Assembly: GCA_034111105.1 (NCBI GenBank)
Contig: JAWUXY010000031.1
Coordinates: 1 to 27,342 of the forward strand
Reading direction: 5' to 3'
From: Bermanella sp.
GTDB taxonomy: Bacteria; Pseudomonadota; Gammaproteobacteria; Pseudomonadales; Oceanobacteraceae
DNA: 27,342 nt
The translations under genes and the position numbers were made by a program. Below the pieces are notes generated by a model. That model was not told the DNA's origin, searched no databases, and was given only the letters and a program-made list of their open reading frames with translations. Of the stretch, positions 7,044 through 15,077 are shown piece after piece (positions within the stretch are counted from its first letter, which is position 1; the number at the start of each line of letters is the position of its first letter).

Positions 7044-7379
7044 ATGTTAGCGCAAGAAAGTTGTGAAGCGTGTCGTGCGGATGCGCCAAACGTGACGGAT
7101 ATTGAATTAACCGATTTTATGCCGGCCATACCTGAATGGCTTAATATAAATGAAGAAAGCGTTGCGAAGTTGCGCCGTAGCTTTGCTTTTAAAAGCTACA
7201 AGCAAGCGCTTAGTTTTACCAATGATCTGGCTTATTTAGCCGAGCAAGAAGATCATCATCCCGATATTTTATTACAATGGGGGAAAGTAACCGTTACATG
7301 GTGGACGCATAAAATTAATGGGTTACACAAAAACGATTTTATCATGGCTGCCAGAACAGACGCATTATACAAACATTAA
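7044..7379 (+). CDS. phhB: 4a-hydroxytetrahydrobiopterin dehydratase (pterin carbinolamine dehydratase)
   Basis: [55 protein letters not shown]. Confidence 0.92.
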
Positions 7380-7714
7380 CGGCTGAGTCTTAATGTATCG
7401 ACTTTAAGTACTCGACCTTCACAGTCGCTTGTGATTACGGTGAGTGACAGACCACTTTTAAGTGCTTCAAGCGCCATTAAAAAGCGTCTTTGCGCGACCG
7501 TGTCATACTCACTGTATACGCGATAAACATTAGATGGCTTACCGCCACAGTTGTGTATCTTATTAGCCGAATGAATATCAAACGGCGCTTCTTCATCATC
7601 GACTCTTTGTTCTAAGCCGCTCACTGACAAGCCTTCTACTGCACGTTCATTTCCCCGAGCATTGGTCATAAAAGCGCAGACGCAGAGAATAATCATTAGT
7701 CGATGTAAAAACAT
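7376..7714 (-). CDS. Small hypothetical secreted protein, divergent from the motor-like cluster
   Basis: N-terminal hydrophobic signal ([15 protein letters not shown]); two Cys in the mature part (HNCGG, TSDCEG). Confidence 0.6.
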
Positions 7715-7864
7715 TGTTGTCCTAATTTCAAGTCATCTTATCCTTATCTAAGTATCGACGTAAAAGCTGAAAACTAAAGGATTTTAACAACTAAACATAG
7801 CGTGTACTCATGCTTGAGCTATGCTTTGTAATTGAGTGTATGGCGAAAATGGATGATGCCAAGG

Positions 7865-8965
7865 ATGAAGCAGGACAACGGACTTTACTCGAATAAATAT
7901 GTAATTTTATCGGCGCTATTCTTTATATTATGCGCCATATTTTCGTCGTATGCCTTTTCTGAAACCCGAGTAGTGACATCAGATGTTCCCGGTTTTGGAT
8001 TGCCCCCTACCATGTATGCTGGCTTTTCTCGTCTATTAGATGACGAAAGTATCCTTGTACCCGAAGAGTTATTAGATGTTGATAAAAACATCAAACGTAT
8101 CGCATTTTATTTTAATGGCGATCGCCTGCATCGAAAAATCCCAAAACAAGTTCACTTAATGATTGAGAATAAATTGCTTGGCAAGTTCATGGGGTTAGGC
8201 CGATTTGAAGTGATCGATTGCATTGAGTGTCGTACTACCCGCGTTAATTTCGAAGACTCTCGTATGCTGATTAGCCAGAGTGCGCAAAGTAATCAGGACT
8301 TGCGTGATTTATCTAAAGATGTGCGAGCGGATGCTTTTTTGTTATGGAGCGCCAGTGTGCATGAAGACAAATTCACTATTAATTTACGATTAGTCAGCGC
8401 AAAAAGTAATGAATTAGTGTGGTTAAAAGAATATGCGAAAAAAACCACACGAGAACAAGAAGAGCTTGAATTTGAAAGTATTGAAATGGAAATGGTCGTC
8501 AGCTCATGGGGATTGGCCGCAGAGCGTGATGGCGTTGGAGCTGTCGAAGATGCCACGCTCAGTGGCGTGACCGCTTTTGGAATTCGACGCCGAGAATACA
8601 CCACTTTAAATAAGGATGTAGAATACAGTTTGGGCGTTGAATATTTTAGGAACTTCTCAAGCAGTGATGAATTTGATGTCAGTGGTTTTAATTTAGAAGG
8701 GCGAATATTTGTTAATATTTCTGCGTTAAAAGATTGGGTTAATACCAAAGCCTACGTAGGAATCGGCCAAGCCTTTTTCAGCGGCAGTCACGGTTTGATG
8801 ATGAAATTCGGTTTAGAGTTTCCATTTGTGACTAATGGCTTTATGGCGATTGGAGCCGTGTACTTGGTTAAAGAAGATGTTGAATGGGATAGTAATGCCG
8901 ATTATGAAGACAGCTCTGAATTTGGTGGTGCTGGTTTGGACTTAACCCTCGGCTATCGGTTCTAA
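7865..8965 (+). CDS. Envelope protein: CsgG/FlgO-like N-domain plus C-terminal outer-membrane beta-barrel-like region (motor-like cluster gene 1)
   Basis: ORF track start is TTG 7832; internal ATG 7865 (or 7853) precedes a signal peptide (YVILSALFFILCAIFSSYAFSE). 'LRDLSKDVRADAFLLWSASVHEDKFTINLRLVSAKSNELVW' is the CsgG/FlgO-type pattern. C-terminus has alternating aromatic strands and ends '...GGAGLDLTLGYRF'. Confidence 0.7.
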   Translation: MKQDNGLYSNKYVILSALFFILCAIFSSYAFSETRVVTSDVPGFGLPPTMYAGFSRLLDDESILVPEELLDVDKNIKRIAFYFNGDRLHRKIPKQVHLMIENKLLGKFMGLGRFEVIDCIECRTTRVNFEDSRMLISQSAQSNQDLRDLSKDVRADAFLLWSASVHEDKFTINLRLVSAKSNELVWLKEYAKKTTREQEELEFESIEMEMVVSSWGLAAERDGVGAVEDATLSGVTAFGIRRREYTTLNKDVEYSLGVEYFRNFSSSDEFDVSGFNLEGRIFVNISALKDWVNTKAYVGIGQAFFSGSHGLMMKFGLEFPFVTNGFMAIGAVYLVKEDVEWDSNADYEDSSEFGGAGLDLTLGYRF

Positions 8966-8975
8966 GGAATAAAAT

Positions 8976-9605
8976 ATGAAAACCATTTTATTACTCCTGT
9001 TTATAATGGTCGCTTGTTTAAGTGGCTGCTCGATTGAACAGCTGGCCATGGAAAAGGATCCATTTATGGAACAAAAACCAGCAGAAGATATCGATCCTTT
9101 AAATTCAGAGAGTGCGGAATACGCAAAAAACAATCATGGCGTTGTGAATATACACCGCCATGGCCCAGGTTATGACGTCATGATGATGCTGAACGCAGGC
9201 GAAAGCGATATTATCTTCAGCATGGATTTACCTGTAGGTGGCGCAACCTATATGCCAGAAATTTCAGAGCAAATGAAAGCACATCGAAAAAAAGGGAAGG
9301 GTTCTAATAACGCTGAAGAAGAGAATGATTTTTTTAATGAAAAAGCCTTATCACTTTTCTCTGATGCGACAAAACATATGCTCAGTGCACAGGCTTTGTT
9401 TTATCGTAAATCGTATTGGAAAGCACTCGAGCAAACGAACAAAGCAATGTCTCTAGTGCCGGCGTCTGCACAGGCTTATGCTTTGAAAGGCAGTATTTAT
9501 TACAAAATGGGCCGTAAAAAAGAAGCCAAAGTATCATGGCAGCAAGCATTGCAATTAGACCCTTCTTTAACGGAAGTTAAAGAGAGTTTAAAGCTCGTTA
9601 AGTAG
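8976..9605 (+). CDS. TPR-repeat lipoprotein (motor-like cluster gene 2)
   Basis: Lipobox 'VACLSGC'; C-terminal TPR pattern 'ALFYRKSYWKALEQTNKAMSLVPASAQAYALKGSIYYKMGRKKEAKVSWQQALQLDPS'. Confidence 0.85.
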   Translation: MKTILLLLFIMVACLSGCSIEQLAMEKDPFMEQKPAEDIDPLNSESAEYAKNNHGVVNIHRHGPGYDVMMMLNAGESDIIFSMDLPVGGATYMPEISEQMKAHRKKGKGSNNAEEENDFFNEKALSLFSDATKHMLSAQALFYRKSYWKALEQTNKAMSLVPASAQAYALKGSIYYKMGRKKEAKVSWQQALQLDPSLTEVKESLKLVK

Positions 9606-9614
9606 GGAATATCT

Positions 9615-11555
9615 ATGCTGAAAAAATATGGATTATTATGGGTAGTGTTAGCCAGTTTATCGTTAATAGCGCAGGCCGCGACGAACACGCCTGTTGAAGT
9701 ACAAACAAAAACCGATGACTTAGAAGAGCTACAGCTTAAATCACAACTAGAAGATAGTCTGGCTCGTGATATTCAGTCTTATCTTGGCCATAATCGATTT
9801 ATTGTCAACGTGAAAGTAAACCTTGAAAAAATTCGCCAAGTTATTAAAACAAAATCAAAACAATCAACACCATTATCTAAAACATACCAACCTACTTTTT
9901 TGCCAAAGCTCACGTTTCCTAATGCAGTTGAAGATGATACTTATGAGGTAGAAAGCTTACCCGGGTTGCCCTTTGTTGATATTCCGGGCGATAAAGAAAA
10001 AGACGCTGAACTGAAGTTTATGCGAGAACAGGTTGAACGTTTACAGCAAGAACAGCGTCAACCACGTTGGCAGGATAGAGAAAACGAAGATGCAAGCGGT
10101 AATGGTGGCTCAGAAGAAACCGTAGGGGTATTTAATCGTATTGCTAAACTAATGGTTACATTAGCGGTTGAAGAAAATGTGAGTGCAGAGCAAGAAGCTT
10201 TTTTAAGAAATTTAGTTTACCAAAAAGCGTCGCTTAATGACTTACGGGGTGATGAGCTTAAAATTATTAGAACACAGTTTTCCAGTATCCCTATAACGGA
10301 AAAAGAAAAGGAACAAATTGCGTCGCCGTTTTCTGATGAGTCAGCGCCGGCACAAAATTGGATGGATGAAAATTTCAATGCGCTATTGTTAGGGTTGTTA
10401 AGTTTATTAGCATTACTGCTAATTAGTTTGATTGTGTTATCAATGCGTAAAAAATCACAACCAAGCGAAGCACAAAATATGTCATCCAGTGACATATCAC
10501 ATACACCTAATGTGTTAGCCACTCCTGAAGCGGAAGGCCCAGACAGTAAGCTCATCATGCAAAAAACTCGGCAAGATATTATATCGCTCGGTTTAGGTCA
10601 GCCTCAGCATGTTCAAGGCACAATGGACCAATTATTGAGCCAAGAAGAAAAAATACCCATGGCGGCGTCTATTTATAAAGTATTGGGTCGCAGCTTGTTT
10701 CGCTCTATTTTTCCTAATATTGAGCAATTTCAGTTGCAAAGTATCATGGCTCACTTAGCCGATCAGCCGCCGGATGACGATCAGCAATTTCAAGACACTC
10801 AAGATTTTTATCAATTATTGCAAAAATCCGTGCAAGAAACAGCAGAAGTAAAATCGCACCCTTTTGAATTTTTAGGCAAATTAAATGACAGCCAAGTTTT
10901 GTATTTGATGCAACATGAAGATGCTCGCATTCAAGCTTTGGTGATTAGTCAACTGCAAGCGCAGCAAGCCGCGCGAGTACTCAATCGCATTAATGAAAAA
11001 CGCCAAGCCCAAGTCATTGCAGAGTTAGGCCAGTTTGAAACATTCCCGTTGGATACCTTTAAAGATGTCGCCGATCGTTTAGCTAAATCTGCATTAAACG
11101 TCCCTAGCTTTGAAAACGTTAATGCTGATGGTTTGCATATGTTAATGAACATGTTGGATAACATGAATTCAACCGAAGAGAACAAAGTATTAAAACGCTT
11201 AAAGCAAGATAAGCCGGATACGTTTTATAAGCTGCGCCAACAATATTTTACCTTTGCAGATGTTGTTAAAACCCCAAGACAAATTCTTAGTAACGCACTG
11301 CGTGAAGTGGAGCGCAGTTTCATTGGCCGTGCGATTTGTGGTACTCCTGATGATTTTAAAATTCATGTGTTGTCATCATTGACGCCCAAGTTGAAAGCCT
11401 TAGCAAAAGAGGACTTAAAGCGTTATGAAGGGCGCATTGGTGCCAAAGATGTGGAATCTGCTCGTAAAGCGATTGTGCATAAGTTGCGTGAGTATATTCA
11501 TACGGGCAAATTCTCTATGGACGAACTGCAAGTCAAAAAGCAGGCTGAGTCATGA
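9615..11555 (+). CDS. FliF(RBM3+TM)-FliG-like natural fusion protein (motor-like cluster gene 3)
   Basis: Signal peptide aa 1-21. aa ~36-226 resembles FliF RBM3 ('QLEDSLARDIQSYLGHNRFIVNVKVNLE', 'NRIAKLMVTLAVEENVSAEQEAFLRNLVYQKASLNDLRGDELKIIRTQF'). TM aa ~255-277. aa ~340-635 aligns by eye with FliG N, M and C domains. Confidence 0.8.
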   Translation: MLKKYGLLWVVLASLSLIAQAATNTPVEVQTKTDDLEELQLKSQLEDSLARDIQSYLGHNRFIVNVKVNLEKIRQVIKTKSKQSTPLSKTYQPTFLPKLTFPNAVEDDTYEVESLPGLPFVDIPGDKEKDAELKFMREQVERLQQEQRQPRWQDRENEDASGNGGSEETVGVFNRIAKLMVTLAVEENVSAEQEAFLRNLVYQKASLNDLRGDELKIIRTQFSSIPITEKEKEQIASPFSDESAPAQNWMDENFNALLLGLLSLLALLLISLIVLSMRKKSQPSEAQNMSSSDISHTPNVLATPEAEGPDSKLIMQKTRQDIISLGLGQPQHVQGTMDQLLSQEEKIPMAASIYKVLGRSLFRSIFPNIEQFQLQSIMAHLADQPPDDDQQFQDTQDFYQLLQKSVQETAEVKSHPFEFLGKLNDSQVLYLMQHEDARIQALVISQLQAQQAARVLNRINEKRQAQVIAELGQFETFPLDTFKDVADRLAKSALNVPSFENVNADGLHMLMNMLDNMNSTEENKVLKRLKQDKPDTFYKLRQQYFTFADVVKTPRQILSNALREVERSFIGRAICGTPDDFKIHVLSSLTPKLKALAKEDLKRYEGRIGAKDVESARKAIVHKLREYIHTGKFSMDELQVKKQAES

Positions 11556-12349
11556 TTAGTTTTAGTACGCTCATTGGTATCACAGCAGGTATTGGCTTAT
11601 TTGTTTTGGCCATTGCCAGTAGTACAGATAACTACATGATGTTTTTAAATCTTGCCAGCGCCATGATGGTGATCGGCAGTACGTTTGCAGCATCGCTCAT
11701 TAGCTTTAGTTTTTTAGAAGTGATGCACGCTGTGAAAGCCATGTTTCAAACGCTTGCGGCTGGGCATACGACACAAGTGCATTTACGCGACCTAGTAAAG
11801 CGCTTTGTGGAATTTAGCCGCATTTATCGTGATGGTGGTATTTCTGCCTTAGAAGATAGTTTAAGCAATAAAGAAAAAAATGATGATTTCTTGTCGTTAG
11901 GGCTAGAGCTAATGGGCTCGGGTTACAAGCAAAGTGATATCCGTGTGATTATGGGGGATGCCATGGACAGCCATTGGCAGCGCCAAAGTCTAGAAGGTAA
12001 AATCCTTAATACCATGGGCATTTATGCACCCGGCTTTGGCATGGTGGGCACCATTGTTGGTTTGATTATCATGCTGGATAACATGGGCGATGATATGGCC
12101 AATCTAGGCAAAGGGTTAGCGTTGGCGTTAATTACGACGCTTTATGGAGTGTTACTCGCTAATCTTTTGTTTAAACCCACTGCGGCGCAAGTGACAGAGA
12201 AACAAGAGCAAGAGTATTTCCGTAATCAATTAATAACCGATGGTTTTGTATTACTGGCTGAAAAAAAGGACGCACTTGTAATGCAAGATCGCCTTAATGC
12301 GTATGTGAAACCCAACAAACGCTTCACCATAGTCGAAACCAATGAGTGA
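11552..12349 (+). CDS. MotA/PomA-family stator-like protein (motor-like cluster gene 4)
   Basis: 265 aa, four hydrophobic segments, cytoplasmic 'SRIYRDGGISALEDSL' loop and 'GIYAPGFGMVGTIVGLIIMLDNM' as in PomA; 4-bp ATGA overlap with the previous gene. Confidence 0.92.
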   Translation: MISFSTLIGITAGIGLFVLAIASSTDNYMMFLNLASAMMVIGSTFAASLISFSFLEVMHAVKAMFQTLAAGHTTQVHLRDLVKRFVEFSRIYRDGGISALEDSLSNKEKNDDFLSLGLELMGSGYKQSDIRVIMGDAMDSHWQRQSLEGKILNTMGIYAPGFGMVGTIVGLIIMLDNMGDDMANLGKGLALALITTLYGVLLANLLFKPTAAQVTEKQEQEYFRNQLITDGFVLLAEKKDALVMQDRLNAYVKPNKRFTIVETNE

Positions 12350-13022
12350 CAAGACTTACAAGCGAGGCTTAAGGCGTCGCCGTGCTACGTTTGATGCTGA
12401 CGGTGAAGGTTGGTTAGTAACCTATGCCGATGCCATTACATTGCTACTGGCGTTTTTTGTGATGATTCTTTCGGTATCGGATCTCAATCAAGGCAAGATC
12501 GAAGCCTTAAAAGAAGGCTTAGCGAGCATTATCTCAGGCAAGCAAGCTCAAACCCCGTTTAACGATATTAAAGACGCGCTGGATGACATTGTTAAGCAGC
12601 ACGGCATGCAAGACTATGTGGCGGTTGATATCGATATGAAGGGGGTTCGGGTTGAATTCTCTAATTTCTCTTTATATCAGTCAGGCAGTGCCGCAATTAA
12701 ACCCGAAGCCTTGCCCATGCTGGCTGAGGTCACAAGAGTTATTAAAGACACCAGTTCATCGACGCACCTCATCGAAATAGAAGGACACACAGACGATGTG
12801 CCCATACATACCGAGCGCTTCCCTTCGAACTGGGAACTCAGCGCTTCGCGCGCCAGTAATGTGGTCAAATACCTTTTGGGCAAGGGCGTTGATAAAGAGC
12901 GATTGAAGGCGTCAGGTTACGCCGACTCTCGCCCTAAGGCTGTACTTGAGCCGGGGCAGGCTTTTACTGAAGACGACAGGGCGGCCAACAGGCGAGTCGT
13001 TATTTATGTAAAGCGTTACTAA
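12342..13022 (+). CDS. MotB-family stator-like protein with OmpA-like peptidoglycan-binding domain (motor-like cluster gene 5)
   Basis: 'GWLVTYADAITLLLAFFVMILSVSD' (Asp30) and 'EIEGHTDDVPIHTERFPSNWELSASRASNVVKYLL...GYADSRP'. Confidence 0.93.
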   Translation: MSDKTYKRGLRRRRATFDADGEGWLVTYADAITLLLAFFVMILSVSDLNQGKIEALKEGLASIISGKQAQTPFNDIKDALDDIVKQHGMQDYVAVDIDMKGVRVEFSNFSLYQSGSAAIKPEALPMLAEVTRVIKDTSSSTHLIEIEGHTDDVPIHTERFPSNWELSASRASNVVKYLLGKGVDKERLKASGYADSRPKAVLEPGQAFTEDDRAANRRVVIYVKRY

Positions 13023-13052
13023 CATCTATAAAACCCGTAACTCCTATTTCAG

Positions 13053-13083
13053 GCCCTATGTGAAAGCATAGGGCTGTTTTTTT
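13053..13083 (+). terminator. Rho-independent terminator ending the motor-like cluster
   Basis: gccctatg-tgaaag-catagggc followed by tgttttttt. Confidence 0.85.
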
Positions 13084-13310
13084 GATGGGTAGTTTTTGCT
13101 TGGTCTGCCATAGGAATTCTTTTGTATTTTGCTCCATTATTTGAGCGATCAACAGATTACTTAATGACCGATTTATTGCTTTTAGTTGTGCAGTTATAAG
13201 TAAAAAGTACTCGGTTACTAGGTGATGGGTTTATAGCAGGTGCCTAAAGTGGCGAATGATGACTATCTCGCCTGAAAAATAGACTATTCTGAATATTATG
13301 AAAAAGATGA

Positions 13311-15077
<1,767 letters not shown>

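Follow-up and report, generated by a model that had tools for sequence, protein, structure and literature searches.

A five-gene module in a housekeeping region

The stretch of DNA analysed here (the window, 27,342 nucleotides from Bermanella sp., contig JAWUXY010000031.1) carries at positions 7832-13022 of the plus strand five tightly packed, co-directional open reading frames (ORFs) of 377, 209, 646, 265 and 226 amino acids (aa), hereafter genes 1 to 5 or the module. Gene 3 joins an S-ring-like domain to a FliG-like region, genes 4 and 5 encode a stator pair of flagellar type, and genes 1 and 2 encode an outer-membrane barrel protein and a lipoprotein with tetratricopeptide repeats (TPR).

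7832-8965, plus strand: gene 1, 377 aa; outer-membrane barrel with an LpoB/FlgO/CsgG-like periplasmic domain
8976-9605, plus strand: gene 2, 209 aa; TPR lipoprotein
9615-11555, plus strand: gene 3, 646 aa; signal peptide, FliF RBM3/beta-collar, transmembrane (TM) helix, FliG-like region
11552-12349, plus strand: gene 4, 265 aa; MotA/PomA/MotP-type stator A subunit
12342-13022, plus strand: gene 5, 226 aa; MotB-type stator B subunit
13052-13085, plus strand: intrinsic-terminator-like hairpin, a 10-pair stem including five G-C pairs and then the T-run GTTTTTTTGA; closes the operon

Genes 1 and 2 lie 10 bp apart and genes 2 and 3 lie 9 bp apart; genes 3 and 4 overlap by 4 bp (ATGA), and genes 4 and 5 by 8 bp. 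Since the gaps are short, stop and start codons overlap and there is a single terminator, the five genes appear to be made as one operon. The base composition of the module is the same as that of its flanks. An earlier interpretation of this DNA from its letters alone (the sequence-only reading) had taken the five genes for one packed unit that ends in a terminator and holds rotor, stator and envelope parts in a window with no other flagellar gene. The packing and the terminator are borne out, and so are the domain assignments of all five proteins, by profile, solved-structure or fold comparison; the FliG/FliF homology of the 646-aa protein, in particular, is strongly supported by Pfam, by Thermotoga maritima FliG and by Foldseek (see below). 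The remainder of the window likewise lacks FliM/FliN, rod, hook, filament, export and chemotaxis genes and consists, from the flanking phhB and pyrG outwards, of housekeeping backbone.

Gene 3 fuses an S-ring-like domain to a FliG-like region

The candidate rotor protein begins with a cleavable signal peptide (aa 1-21, LIAQA/ATN), which is followed by a periplasmic domain resembling the ring-building motif 3 (RBM3) and beta-collar of the FliF S-ring (aa 27-220) and a single strongly hydrophobic TM helix (aa 254-278, by hydropathy). From this helix a disordered tether leads to the FliG-like region, which is full-length and spans aa 309-640. The FliG homology is evident at the level of profiles, as FliG_M (E=1.5e-12, 48 bits) and FliG_C (E=1.8e-17, 64 bits) both pass their Pfam cut-offs, and at the level of solved structures, with T. 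maritima FliG in the PDB matching at E=7e-22. When folds are compared with the PDB in Foldseek, the cytoplasmic 330 residues align with full-length FliG of Aquifex and Salmonella at E=2.5e-10 over 315 columns. Yet gene 3 does not encode a conventional FliG: its product is a membrane protein of 646 aa, unlike the soluble FliG of about 330 aa, and it falls short of the fliG equivalogs (79 bits against a cut-off of 226.7 for TIGR00207, and 29.6 against 550 for NF004260). NCBIfam, Pfam and PADLOC hold no family for the fusion as such, nor for gene 1, and the public annotations of gene 3 homologues read "hypothetical protein" or "FliG C-terminal domain-containing protein".

The periplasmic part is more diverged. 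Its match to Pfam YscJ_FliF_C (PF08345) is weak (E=0.006, 17.5 bits against a cut-off of 23.8, aa 55-222), the same family being recorded for many gene 3 homologues and scoring above the cut-off in the homologue P0394. In Foldseek it matches the RBM3/beta-collar S-ring of FliF from Salmonella and Vibrio (8z5v, 8ftf, 6sd1 and 8z4d; E=2e-3 to 1e-2, probability 1.0) and, more weakly, SpoIIIAG. An AlphaFold2 (AF2) model built on 14 homologues, with a mean predicted local distance difference test (pLDDT) score of 71.5, has a split RBM topology in which a beta-alpha unit leads into a long strand (aa 62-79), a poorly predicted insertion, a return strand (aa 166-186) and an alpha-beta unit, which is the way in which FliF RBM3 is interrupted by its collar. 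No Pfam match to YscJ_FliF (RBM1/2) was found in gene 3, and just about 195 periplasmic residues follow the signal peptide, together with one TM helix.

Two sites within gene 3 bear on its possible function:

9957-9971, plus strand: LPGLP motif, aa 115-119, in a low-pLDDT loop between collar strands 62-79 and 166-186
11385-11426, plus strand: torque-helix equivalent in the FliG_C-like domain, aa 591-604, PKLKALAKEDLKRY, aligned to T. maritima FliG

The LPGLP motif is almost invariant: of 132 full-length family representatives, 121 have the L, 127 the P and 123 the G. A partner in the periplasm may make contact with its loop. In the residue-level alignment with T. maritima FliG, K592, E599 and D600 occupy torque-helix positions; we take K592 to correspond to R281 of Escherichia coli FliG, and E599/D600 to D288/D289. 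A basic residue (R or K) at position 592 is kept in 114 of the 132 representatives. The EHPQR motif by which FliG_M binds FliM is not retained: gene 3 has QHEDAR where T. maritima has SEHPQT, and across the family the Glu alone is conserved. This loss fits with the lack of FliM and FliN in the module.

Genes 4 and 5 encode a flagellar-type stator pair

The product of gene 4 has four TM helices (by hydropathy) and a cytoplasmic loop carrying R93 and E101. It matches Pfam MotA_ExbB at E=1e-21 and aligns end to end with the PDB entries for Clostridium sporogenes MotA (E=3e-36) and Vibrio alginolyticus PomA (E=2e-29), such that R93 and E101 fall on PomA R88 and E96, the loop charges that meet FliG. 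Across 47 MotAs from modules, position 93 is R in 42 and K in two, position 101 is E in 40 and D in four, and the TM4 proline P209 is found in all 47. The best named families in NCBIfam are MotP (163 bits against a cut-off of 394), MotA (141 bits) and PomA (136 against 341), all of them below cut-off; TolQ (E=0.0065, 16 bits against a cut-off of 221) and ExbB (E=0.0049) score 16-17 bits. Gene 4 also has equivalents of the Na+-site threonines T158, T185 and T186 of PomA (PMC6677748). However, C. sporogenes MotA has them too, and the coupling ion may be either H+ or Na+.

Gene 5 encodes a short MotB with a TM-helix channel aspartate (D30), a plug and an OmpA-like peptidoglycan-binding domain. 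Pfam recognises MotB_plug (E=2e-14, 53 bits) and OmpA (E=1e-16, 61 bits), and MotB and PomB in the PDB match at E=1e-25 to 1e-20. In NCBIfam, MotD (180 bits against a cut-off of 283) and MotS (129 bits) are both below cut-off. The channel aspartate is present in all seven module MotBs inspected. By pairwise scores, most module MotAs are closer to one another (116-352 bits) than to flagellar MotA/PomA (88-137 bits), which suggests that the stator has diverged together with the module as a group of its own near the flagellar stators.

Gene 1 and gene 2 encode an outer-membrane protein and a lipoprotein

The TTG at 7832, with which gene 1 is listed, is not conserved in close relatives (it is ATA in locus L001) and the homologues begin MMPRMK or MPRM, so that the true start is probably the ATG at 7853. 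The protein has a signal peptide with cleavage near AFS/ETR and a periplasmic alpha/beta domain at about aa 85-205, whose CxxC motif (C130/C133) is invariant in an alignment of 20 sequences (A2). Its C-terminal part is an 8-stranded beta-barrel that closes with GYRF, the outer-membrane beta-signal. An AF2 model (pLDDT 78) shows the C-terminal 8-stranded barrel and an N-terminal LpoB/TolB-N-like domain. In Foldseek comparisons of this model the barrel matches NspA, OmpX and OmpA (E=1e-6 to 1e-5), and the N-terminal domain matches the LpoB C-domain (E=6e-5) and TolB (E=2.5e-4). No sequence relative of gene 1 was found in the PDB. The Pfam FlgO match (PF17680) is weak, at E=0.0017 and 18.6 bits against a cut-off of 22.6, and among 20 members of the gene 1 family similarly weak matches are to FlgO in 13, CsgG in four, FlgT_M in four and LpoB in two. 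Gene 1 thus seems to have a fold superfamily in common with FlgO, CsgG, FlgT_M and LpoB, bearing in mind that its own FlgO match lies below the cut-off. Every homologue is annotated as hypothetical, and homologues, of about 360 aa, were recovered by profile or iterative search from 11 of 11 distant loci tested. Gene 1 is also the most conserved of the five genes when close relatives are compared, with 97% identity to L001, where the TPR lipoprotein reaches 87% and the rotor fusion 84%.

Gene 2 reads as a lipoprotein with the lipobox LSGC and Ser at position +2. Its N-terminal region is conserved and beta-rich, and its C-terminal part consists of TPR repeats (Pfam TPR_1, E=3e-10; TPR_2, E=1e-8). 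Jackhmmer searches found its homologues, too, in all 11 distant loci tested.

Conservation, distribution and selection

Close and mid-range homologues of the gene 3 fusion occur in Bermanella, Oceaniserpentilla, Oleispira, Thalassolituus and related metagenome-assembled genomes (MAGs), which points to a Bermanella-like member of the Oceanospirillales as the source of the window. When one genome per species was scanned, 40 loci were found, and each of the 40 shows the complete five-gene set as far as its contig extends. The locus occupies the same place in the housekeeping backbone of several Oceanospirillales genera, namely Bermanella, Oceaniserpentilla, Oleispira, Thalassolituus, Oceanobacter and Bacterioplanoides. 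From Bermanella to Thalassolituus the upstream neighbours fumA and phhB do not change, which indicates that the module belongs to the vertically inherited core genome. Comparisons with close relatives give nonsynonymous divergence (dN) of 0.02-0.16 with saturated synonymous divergence (dS), that is, strongly purifying selection.

Farther afield, a gammaproteobacterial MAG and an Ectothiorhodospiraceae MAG encode fusions 28-30% identical to that of the window, in the order motA-motB-g1-g2-g3. A profile search of 1.84 billion cluster representatives yielded 160 clusters (50% identity) with the fusion architecture at E<=1e-30; nearly all of these proteins are 580-720 aa long, and their alignments begin where the periplasmic domain ends and reach the C-terminus. 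Examination of the neighbourhoods of 12 distant representatives revealed the module in 10, either in the order of the window or as g3-g1-g2-motA-motB, with hosts that include chromosome 2 of Vibrio sp. SCSIO 43136, a Fibrobacterales MAG and a Balneola genome (the latter two assigned through exact matches of neighbouring RpoC and TrpS sequences). The five genes stand together in loci L041-L048, with permuted order (motA-motB-g1-g2-g3 or g3-g1-g2-motA-motB), although the fusions there are only 17-33% identical to one another (alignment A3), and a profile of these distant members gives at least nine matches, including Fibrobacterales and Elusimicrobiota. The known hosts therefore span at least three phyla (Pseudomonadota, Fibrobacterota and Balneolota), most family representatives being metagenomic proteins. 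The proposal of the sequence-only reading that the five genes belong together thus holds across the 40 loci, as far as contigs allow, and across 10 of the 12 distant contexts in these phyla.

The genes beside distant modules differ from one locus to the next and give no consistent hint at an output. They comprise fliR-flhB and a response-regulator GGDEF protein at L041 (157-9700), a BBP2 barrel with a Wza/Wzz/Wzy polysaccharide export cluster at L043 (10614-16819) and a 781-aa Ig-like/CarboxypepD_reg surface protein at the Vibrio locus L046 (4845-7190).

Two family variants have a different setting. The first, at L049 (9001-12709), is a protein of 771 aa next to a KAP-family NTPase, with no MotAB, gene 1 or TPR partner within 9 kb. 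The second, from Elusimicrobiota (L050, 1343-13884), has the domain order RBM3, FliG_M, FliG_C and C-terminal TPR with no MotAB nearby; it follows a 508-aa TPR protein and a small FlgD_ig-like protein, and precedes two uncharacterised giants of 1615 and 1105 aa. We considered whether this TPR fusion is a clue to the TPR partner of the module, and rejected the idea because the repeats lie C-terminal to FliG_C and hence on the cytoplasmic side.

Regulatory region and neighbouring genes

A short non-coding segment directly precedes the probable start of gene 1:

7796-7852, plus strand: conserved non-coding stretch 5' of gene 1, with the inverted repeat CATAGC-N17-GCTATG

It is nearly invariant between the window and four Bermanella-like relatives (L001, L002, L003 and L006), and the sequence farther upstream diverges. 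The stretch has no Rfam match and its predicted RNA fold is not better than that of shuffled sequences (z=-0.4). It may be an operator, a promoter, a 5' leader or the binding site of a regulator. Exact consensus patterns for sigma-54 and sigma-28 were not found upstream of the module.

The window genes upstream of the module are maf, sodB, a class I fumarase gene (fumA) and phhB, and those downstream are pyrG, eno, ftsB, ispD, ispF, truD, surE, pcm, nlpD and rpoS. The phhB gene (pterin-4a-carbinolamine dehydratase, 7044-7379) lies just upstream of the module here and across the Oceanospirillales loci. It is also found two genes upstream of the module at the unrelated locus L044 (6083-6430), possibly by coincidence. 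Between phhB and the module, and divergent from the latter, an ORF on the minus strand (7376-7714) encodes a 112-aa protein with a signal peptide and no family assignment. Homologues with 35-68% identity stand beside the module in many Oceanospirillales loci and are absent from all distant modules. We considered this secreted protein as a sixth component, and rejected it because it is confined to the Oceanospirillales clade. On the other side, the pyrG ORF as listed begins at 13323, but its first 40 residues (13323-13442) are unlike CTP synthase and the conserved protein starts at about 13443; a start there leaves an intergenic region of about 360 bp beyond the module terminator. Downstream of rpoS are genes for a DUF3127 protein (23976-24362) and for a protein of the RebB or "killing trait" R-body family (24527-24964).

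Comparison with known systems

Four of the five proteins, or their domains, are nearest to components of the flagellar motor core. The likeness extends to the RBM3/collar of FliF, the N, M and C domains of FliG with their torque charges, the R/E loop and prolines of MotA, and the channel aspartate, plug and peptidoglycan-binding domain of MotB. By contrast, the module has no FliF RBM1/RBM2, N-terminal TM helix or FliG-binding tail, but a natural fusion of S-ring domain, TM helix and FliG. It encodes no FliM, FliN, export gate, rod, hook, filament or chemotaxis protein, it has lost EHPQR, it adds an outer-membrane barrel and a TPR lipoprotein of its own, and it misses the cut-offs of the flagellar equivalogs in NCBIfam widely.

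Natural FliF-FliG fusions are known from Chlamydiaceae, the only ones that we found in open-access papers and bioRxiv, which otherwise yielded engineered fusions and general stator phylogenies. Like gene 3, the chlamydial protein combines a FliF-like periplasmic ring domain, a TM segment and a FliG-like domain outside a complete flagellar set. However, it has about 330 aa, with RBM2, an unassigned RBM and the FliG M domain alone; no dedicated MotAB is reported for it, and it was proposed to work with the injectisome (Bergeron, 2016; PMC4768692). Gene 3, on the other hand, has the RBM3/collar and a full-length FliG, and the fusions of the module family are linked to MotAB. Engineered fusions of Salmonella and Vibrio FliF and FliG assemble rings of about 34 subunits (PDB 8z4d; PMC11481574), indicating that a fused S-ring/FliG design is mechanically feasible, though these are laboratory constructs of complete FliF and FliG within a complete flagellum.

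The two remaining proteins recall the stator scaffolds of high-torque motors, such as the MotX/MotY T-ring and the FlgT/FlgO/FlgP H-ring of Vibrio or PflA/PflB/FlgP/FlgQ of Campylobacter, in which outer-membrane and periplasmic proteins with TPR/Sel1 and FlgO/FlgT/LpoB-like folds accompany MotAB-type stators. They differ in that the similarity of gene 1 is below Pfam cut-offs, that it has an additional 8-stranded barrel and that the module provides no basal body on which to assemble. In its overall plan, an ion-driven motor in the inner membrane with periplasmic and outer-membrane partners for envelope work, the module resembles TolQRA-Pal, ExbBD-TonB, AglRQS-Glt, GldLM of the type IX secretion system (T9SS) and Zorya, among which TPR lipoproteins (GltE, CpoB) and OmpA-like anchors recur. 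Yet these 5:2 motors have A subunits of the TolQ/ExbB/GldL type and couple through TM helices or periplasmic rods, and none has FliG. The module does not fall into any of them: gene 4 is far below TolQ/ExbB and its partner is FliF/FliG-like, the Myxococcus GltE model matches the TPR protein with 20.7 bits against a cut-off of 225 through generic repeats alone, and the match to ZorA is marginal on the TM core and that to ZorB generic. A stator phylogeny of 2025 names the MotAB/PomAB-type clade "flagellar ion transporters" (FIT) and describes no FliG-linked member that is not flagellar (PMC12505986). Nor did our search of open-access papers and bioRxiv find a non-flagellar FliG/MotAB module or a named system of this composition, in agreement with the sequence-only reading, which named none.

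Discussion

What does this module do? We lean towards the view that it encodes an ion-driven rotor-stator machine, complete in itself and spanning the envelope, that is made up of homologues of flagellar motor-core components. Three of its proteins are homologous to the flagellar rotor and stator, the channel aspartate, the plug, the peptidoglycan-binding domain and the charge pairs are in place, and the association of the five genes is obligate and under purifying selection. A more specific scenario is that the machine is free-standing and rotary, is coupled to outer-membrane proteins of its own and performs work other than swimming; it would then be the first case known in which the FliG-MotAB torque interface serves outside the flagellum. 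We hold this scenario more tentatively, as a possibility that we would not yet call probable.

Several observations weigh against these readings. Ring formation, rotation, independence from the flagellum and the output are all features that we infer from the sequences. The predicted template modelling (pTM) score of the gene 3 model is just 0.29, so that the mutual arrangement of its domains is not defined. The acidic residues at positions 599/600 are kept in just about a third of the 132 gene 3 representatives, and R93 and E101 of MotA vary in the modules that are most distant. The module encodes no cargo, adhesin, secretion gate or axle. Finally, every host of established biology is or may be flagellated, and one distant module (L041) directly follows fliR-flhB.

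The relation to the host's flagellum thus deserves attention. Bermanella marisrubri and Oleibacter marinus 2O1 each have a single polar flagellum (Thomson et al.; PMC6248924), and strain 2O1 is DSM 24913, the host of the module-bearing locus L028. In FliF it is RBM1 and RBM2 that surround the export gate. Since gene 3 has neither of these, nor the FliM-binding motif, it cannot serve as the flagellar MS-ring/FliG. Given that module-bearing relatives are flagellated, the module appears to be an addition to a normal flagellar system rather than its motor.

It is possible that such an addition acts solely within the flagellum, as an accessory of the polar flagellar motor of the host: an extra rotor/stator ring, an alternative set of stators with its adaptor or an outer-membrane scaffold. 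In high-torque motors the scaffold of the stators consists of FlgO/FlgT and of TPR or Sel1 proteins (MotX, PflA/PflB), and the N-terminal domain of gene 1 weakly resembles FlgO and FlgT_M. The MotA/MotB pair is flagellar in type, plug included, the hosts of known biology are polarly flagellated (PMC6248924), and one distant module stands immediately behind fliR-flhB. However, a FliG-like torque ring of its own, on a membrane-anchored S-ring protein, would be redundant where FliF and FliG exist, and the FliM-binding EHPQR motif is lost. Moreover, the module does not adjoin flagellar genes in the window, in the 40 genome loci or in 10 of the 11 other module-bearing contexts, and it has no exact sigma-28 or sigma-54 consensus upstream. 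We therefore regard a flagellar accessory as unlikely.

An energiser in the manner of Tol-Pal or Ton, in which the MotAB-type unit passes force to single copies or small oligomers of gene 3 that extend to an outer-membrane partner and act like TolA/TonB in envelope integrity, the handling of lipids or polymers, or division, strikes us as less probable again. The parallels are extensive on paper, as a TolQ-like plus TolR-like pair, an inner-membrane transducer, a TolB-N/LpoB-like domain, a CpoB-like TPR protein and an OmpA-like peptidoglycan binder can all be matched; the location in the core genome among housekeeping genes would suit such a function, and one distant module lies beside the Wza/Wzz/Wzy polysaccharide export cluster. 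The parts themselves argue otherwise, since gene 4 scores 135-163 bits to flagellar stator families versus about 16-17 bits to TolQ/ExbB. While Tol and Ton systems couple through TM helices, the conserved partner surface here is the cytoplasmic torque helix of FliG_C, and the periplasmic domain has the ring-forming RBM3/collar fold of FliF and not the extended rod of TolA/TonB.

Anti-phage defence similar to Zorya, with a MotAB-like motor as the sensor of envelope perturbation, we consider very improbable. Gene 5 does resemble the ZorB models of PADLOC (E=1.5e-18) and gene 4 has a marginal match to ZorA (E=7e-4), but these reflect just the generic MotB fold and the TM core of MotA. The module lacks ZorC, ZorD, a nuclease and any other effector, and PADLOC has no match for genes 1-3. 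Unlike variable defence islands, the module keeps a fixed position in the housekeeping backbone across Oceanospirillales genera and does not differ in composition from its flanks. The stable core-genome location and the lack of PADLOC matches for genes 1-3 argue against a defence output in general. That the module is a decaying, functionless remnant of a second flagellar system is hardly credible, even though its parts are homologous to flagellar proteins and its hosts have another flagellar system, as the ORFs are intact in every locus examined, low dN against saturated dS rules out decay and the same five genes recur in three phyla with permuted order, with about 160 diverged clusters sharing the fusion architecture.

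If the module is indeed a self-contained rotor-stator machine, its operation can be envisaged as follows. The five genes would be expressed together, and the gene 3 protein would be exported by means of its signal peptide and cross the inner membrane once. By homology to FliF RBM3 and SpoIIIAG, its S-ring-like domain would drive the formation of a ring of a few tens of subunits, placing the FliG-like domains in a ring beneath the inner membrane. Genes 4 and 5 would form a unit of the MotA5B2 type that, once unplugged and anchored to peptidoglycan through the OmpA-like domain, lets H+ or Na+ pass D30, as expected from its flagellar relatives. Ion flow would turn the MotA pentamer, which would then push the FliG-like torque helix (R93/E101 acting on K592/E599/D600) and so rotate the ring. 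Since there is no FliM, FliN or CheY-binding motif, rotation is expected to be in one direction, without switching. On the outer-membrane side, the TPR lipoprotein and the barrel/LpoB-like protein might form a static scaffold that positions or activates the stators. Alternatively, they might be the load that is turned by the periplasmic collar, perhaps through the LPGLP loop. Our guess is that the machine works mechanically, within the envelope or on the surface of the cell, and does not serve swimming.

The torque core as such is known from flagella; what is new is a flagellar-type rotor-stator unit in a self-contained, envelope-spanning context. FliG together with flagellar-type MotAB is currently treated as specific to the flagellum. 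If our reading is correct, the torque generator of the flagellum is able to function by itself, without export apparatus or filament, and one rotor and two stator proteins would make a minimal rotor-stator model for structural and single-molecule work. It is even conceivable, though we think it quite improbable, that the lineage is not a reduced flagellum but represents a sister, or a relic, of the rotor-stator unit whose joining with an SctJ-like secretion ring gave rise to FliF and the motor. The origin of the flagellar motor becomes testable in this respect by rooting FliG, RBM3 and MotA trees with the module family. For the hosts themselves, the module points to a new envelope function in abundant marine hydrocarbon degraders (Oleispira, Thalassolituus and Bermanella), which are culturable and in part genetically manipulable.

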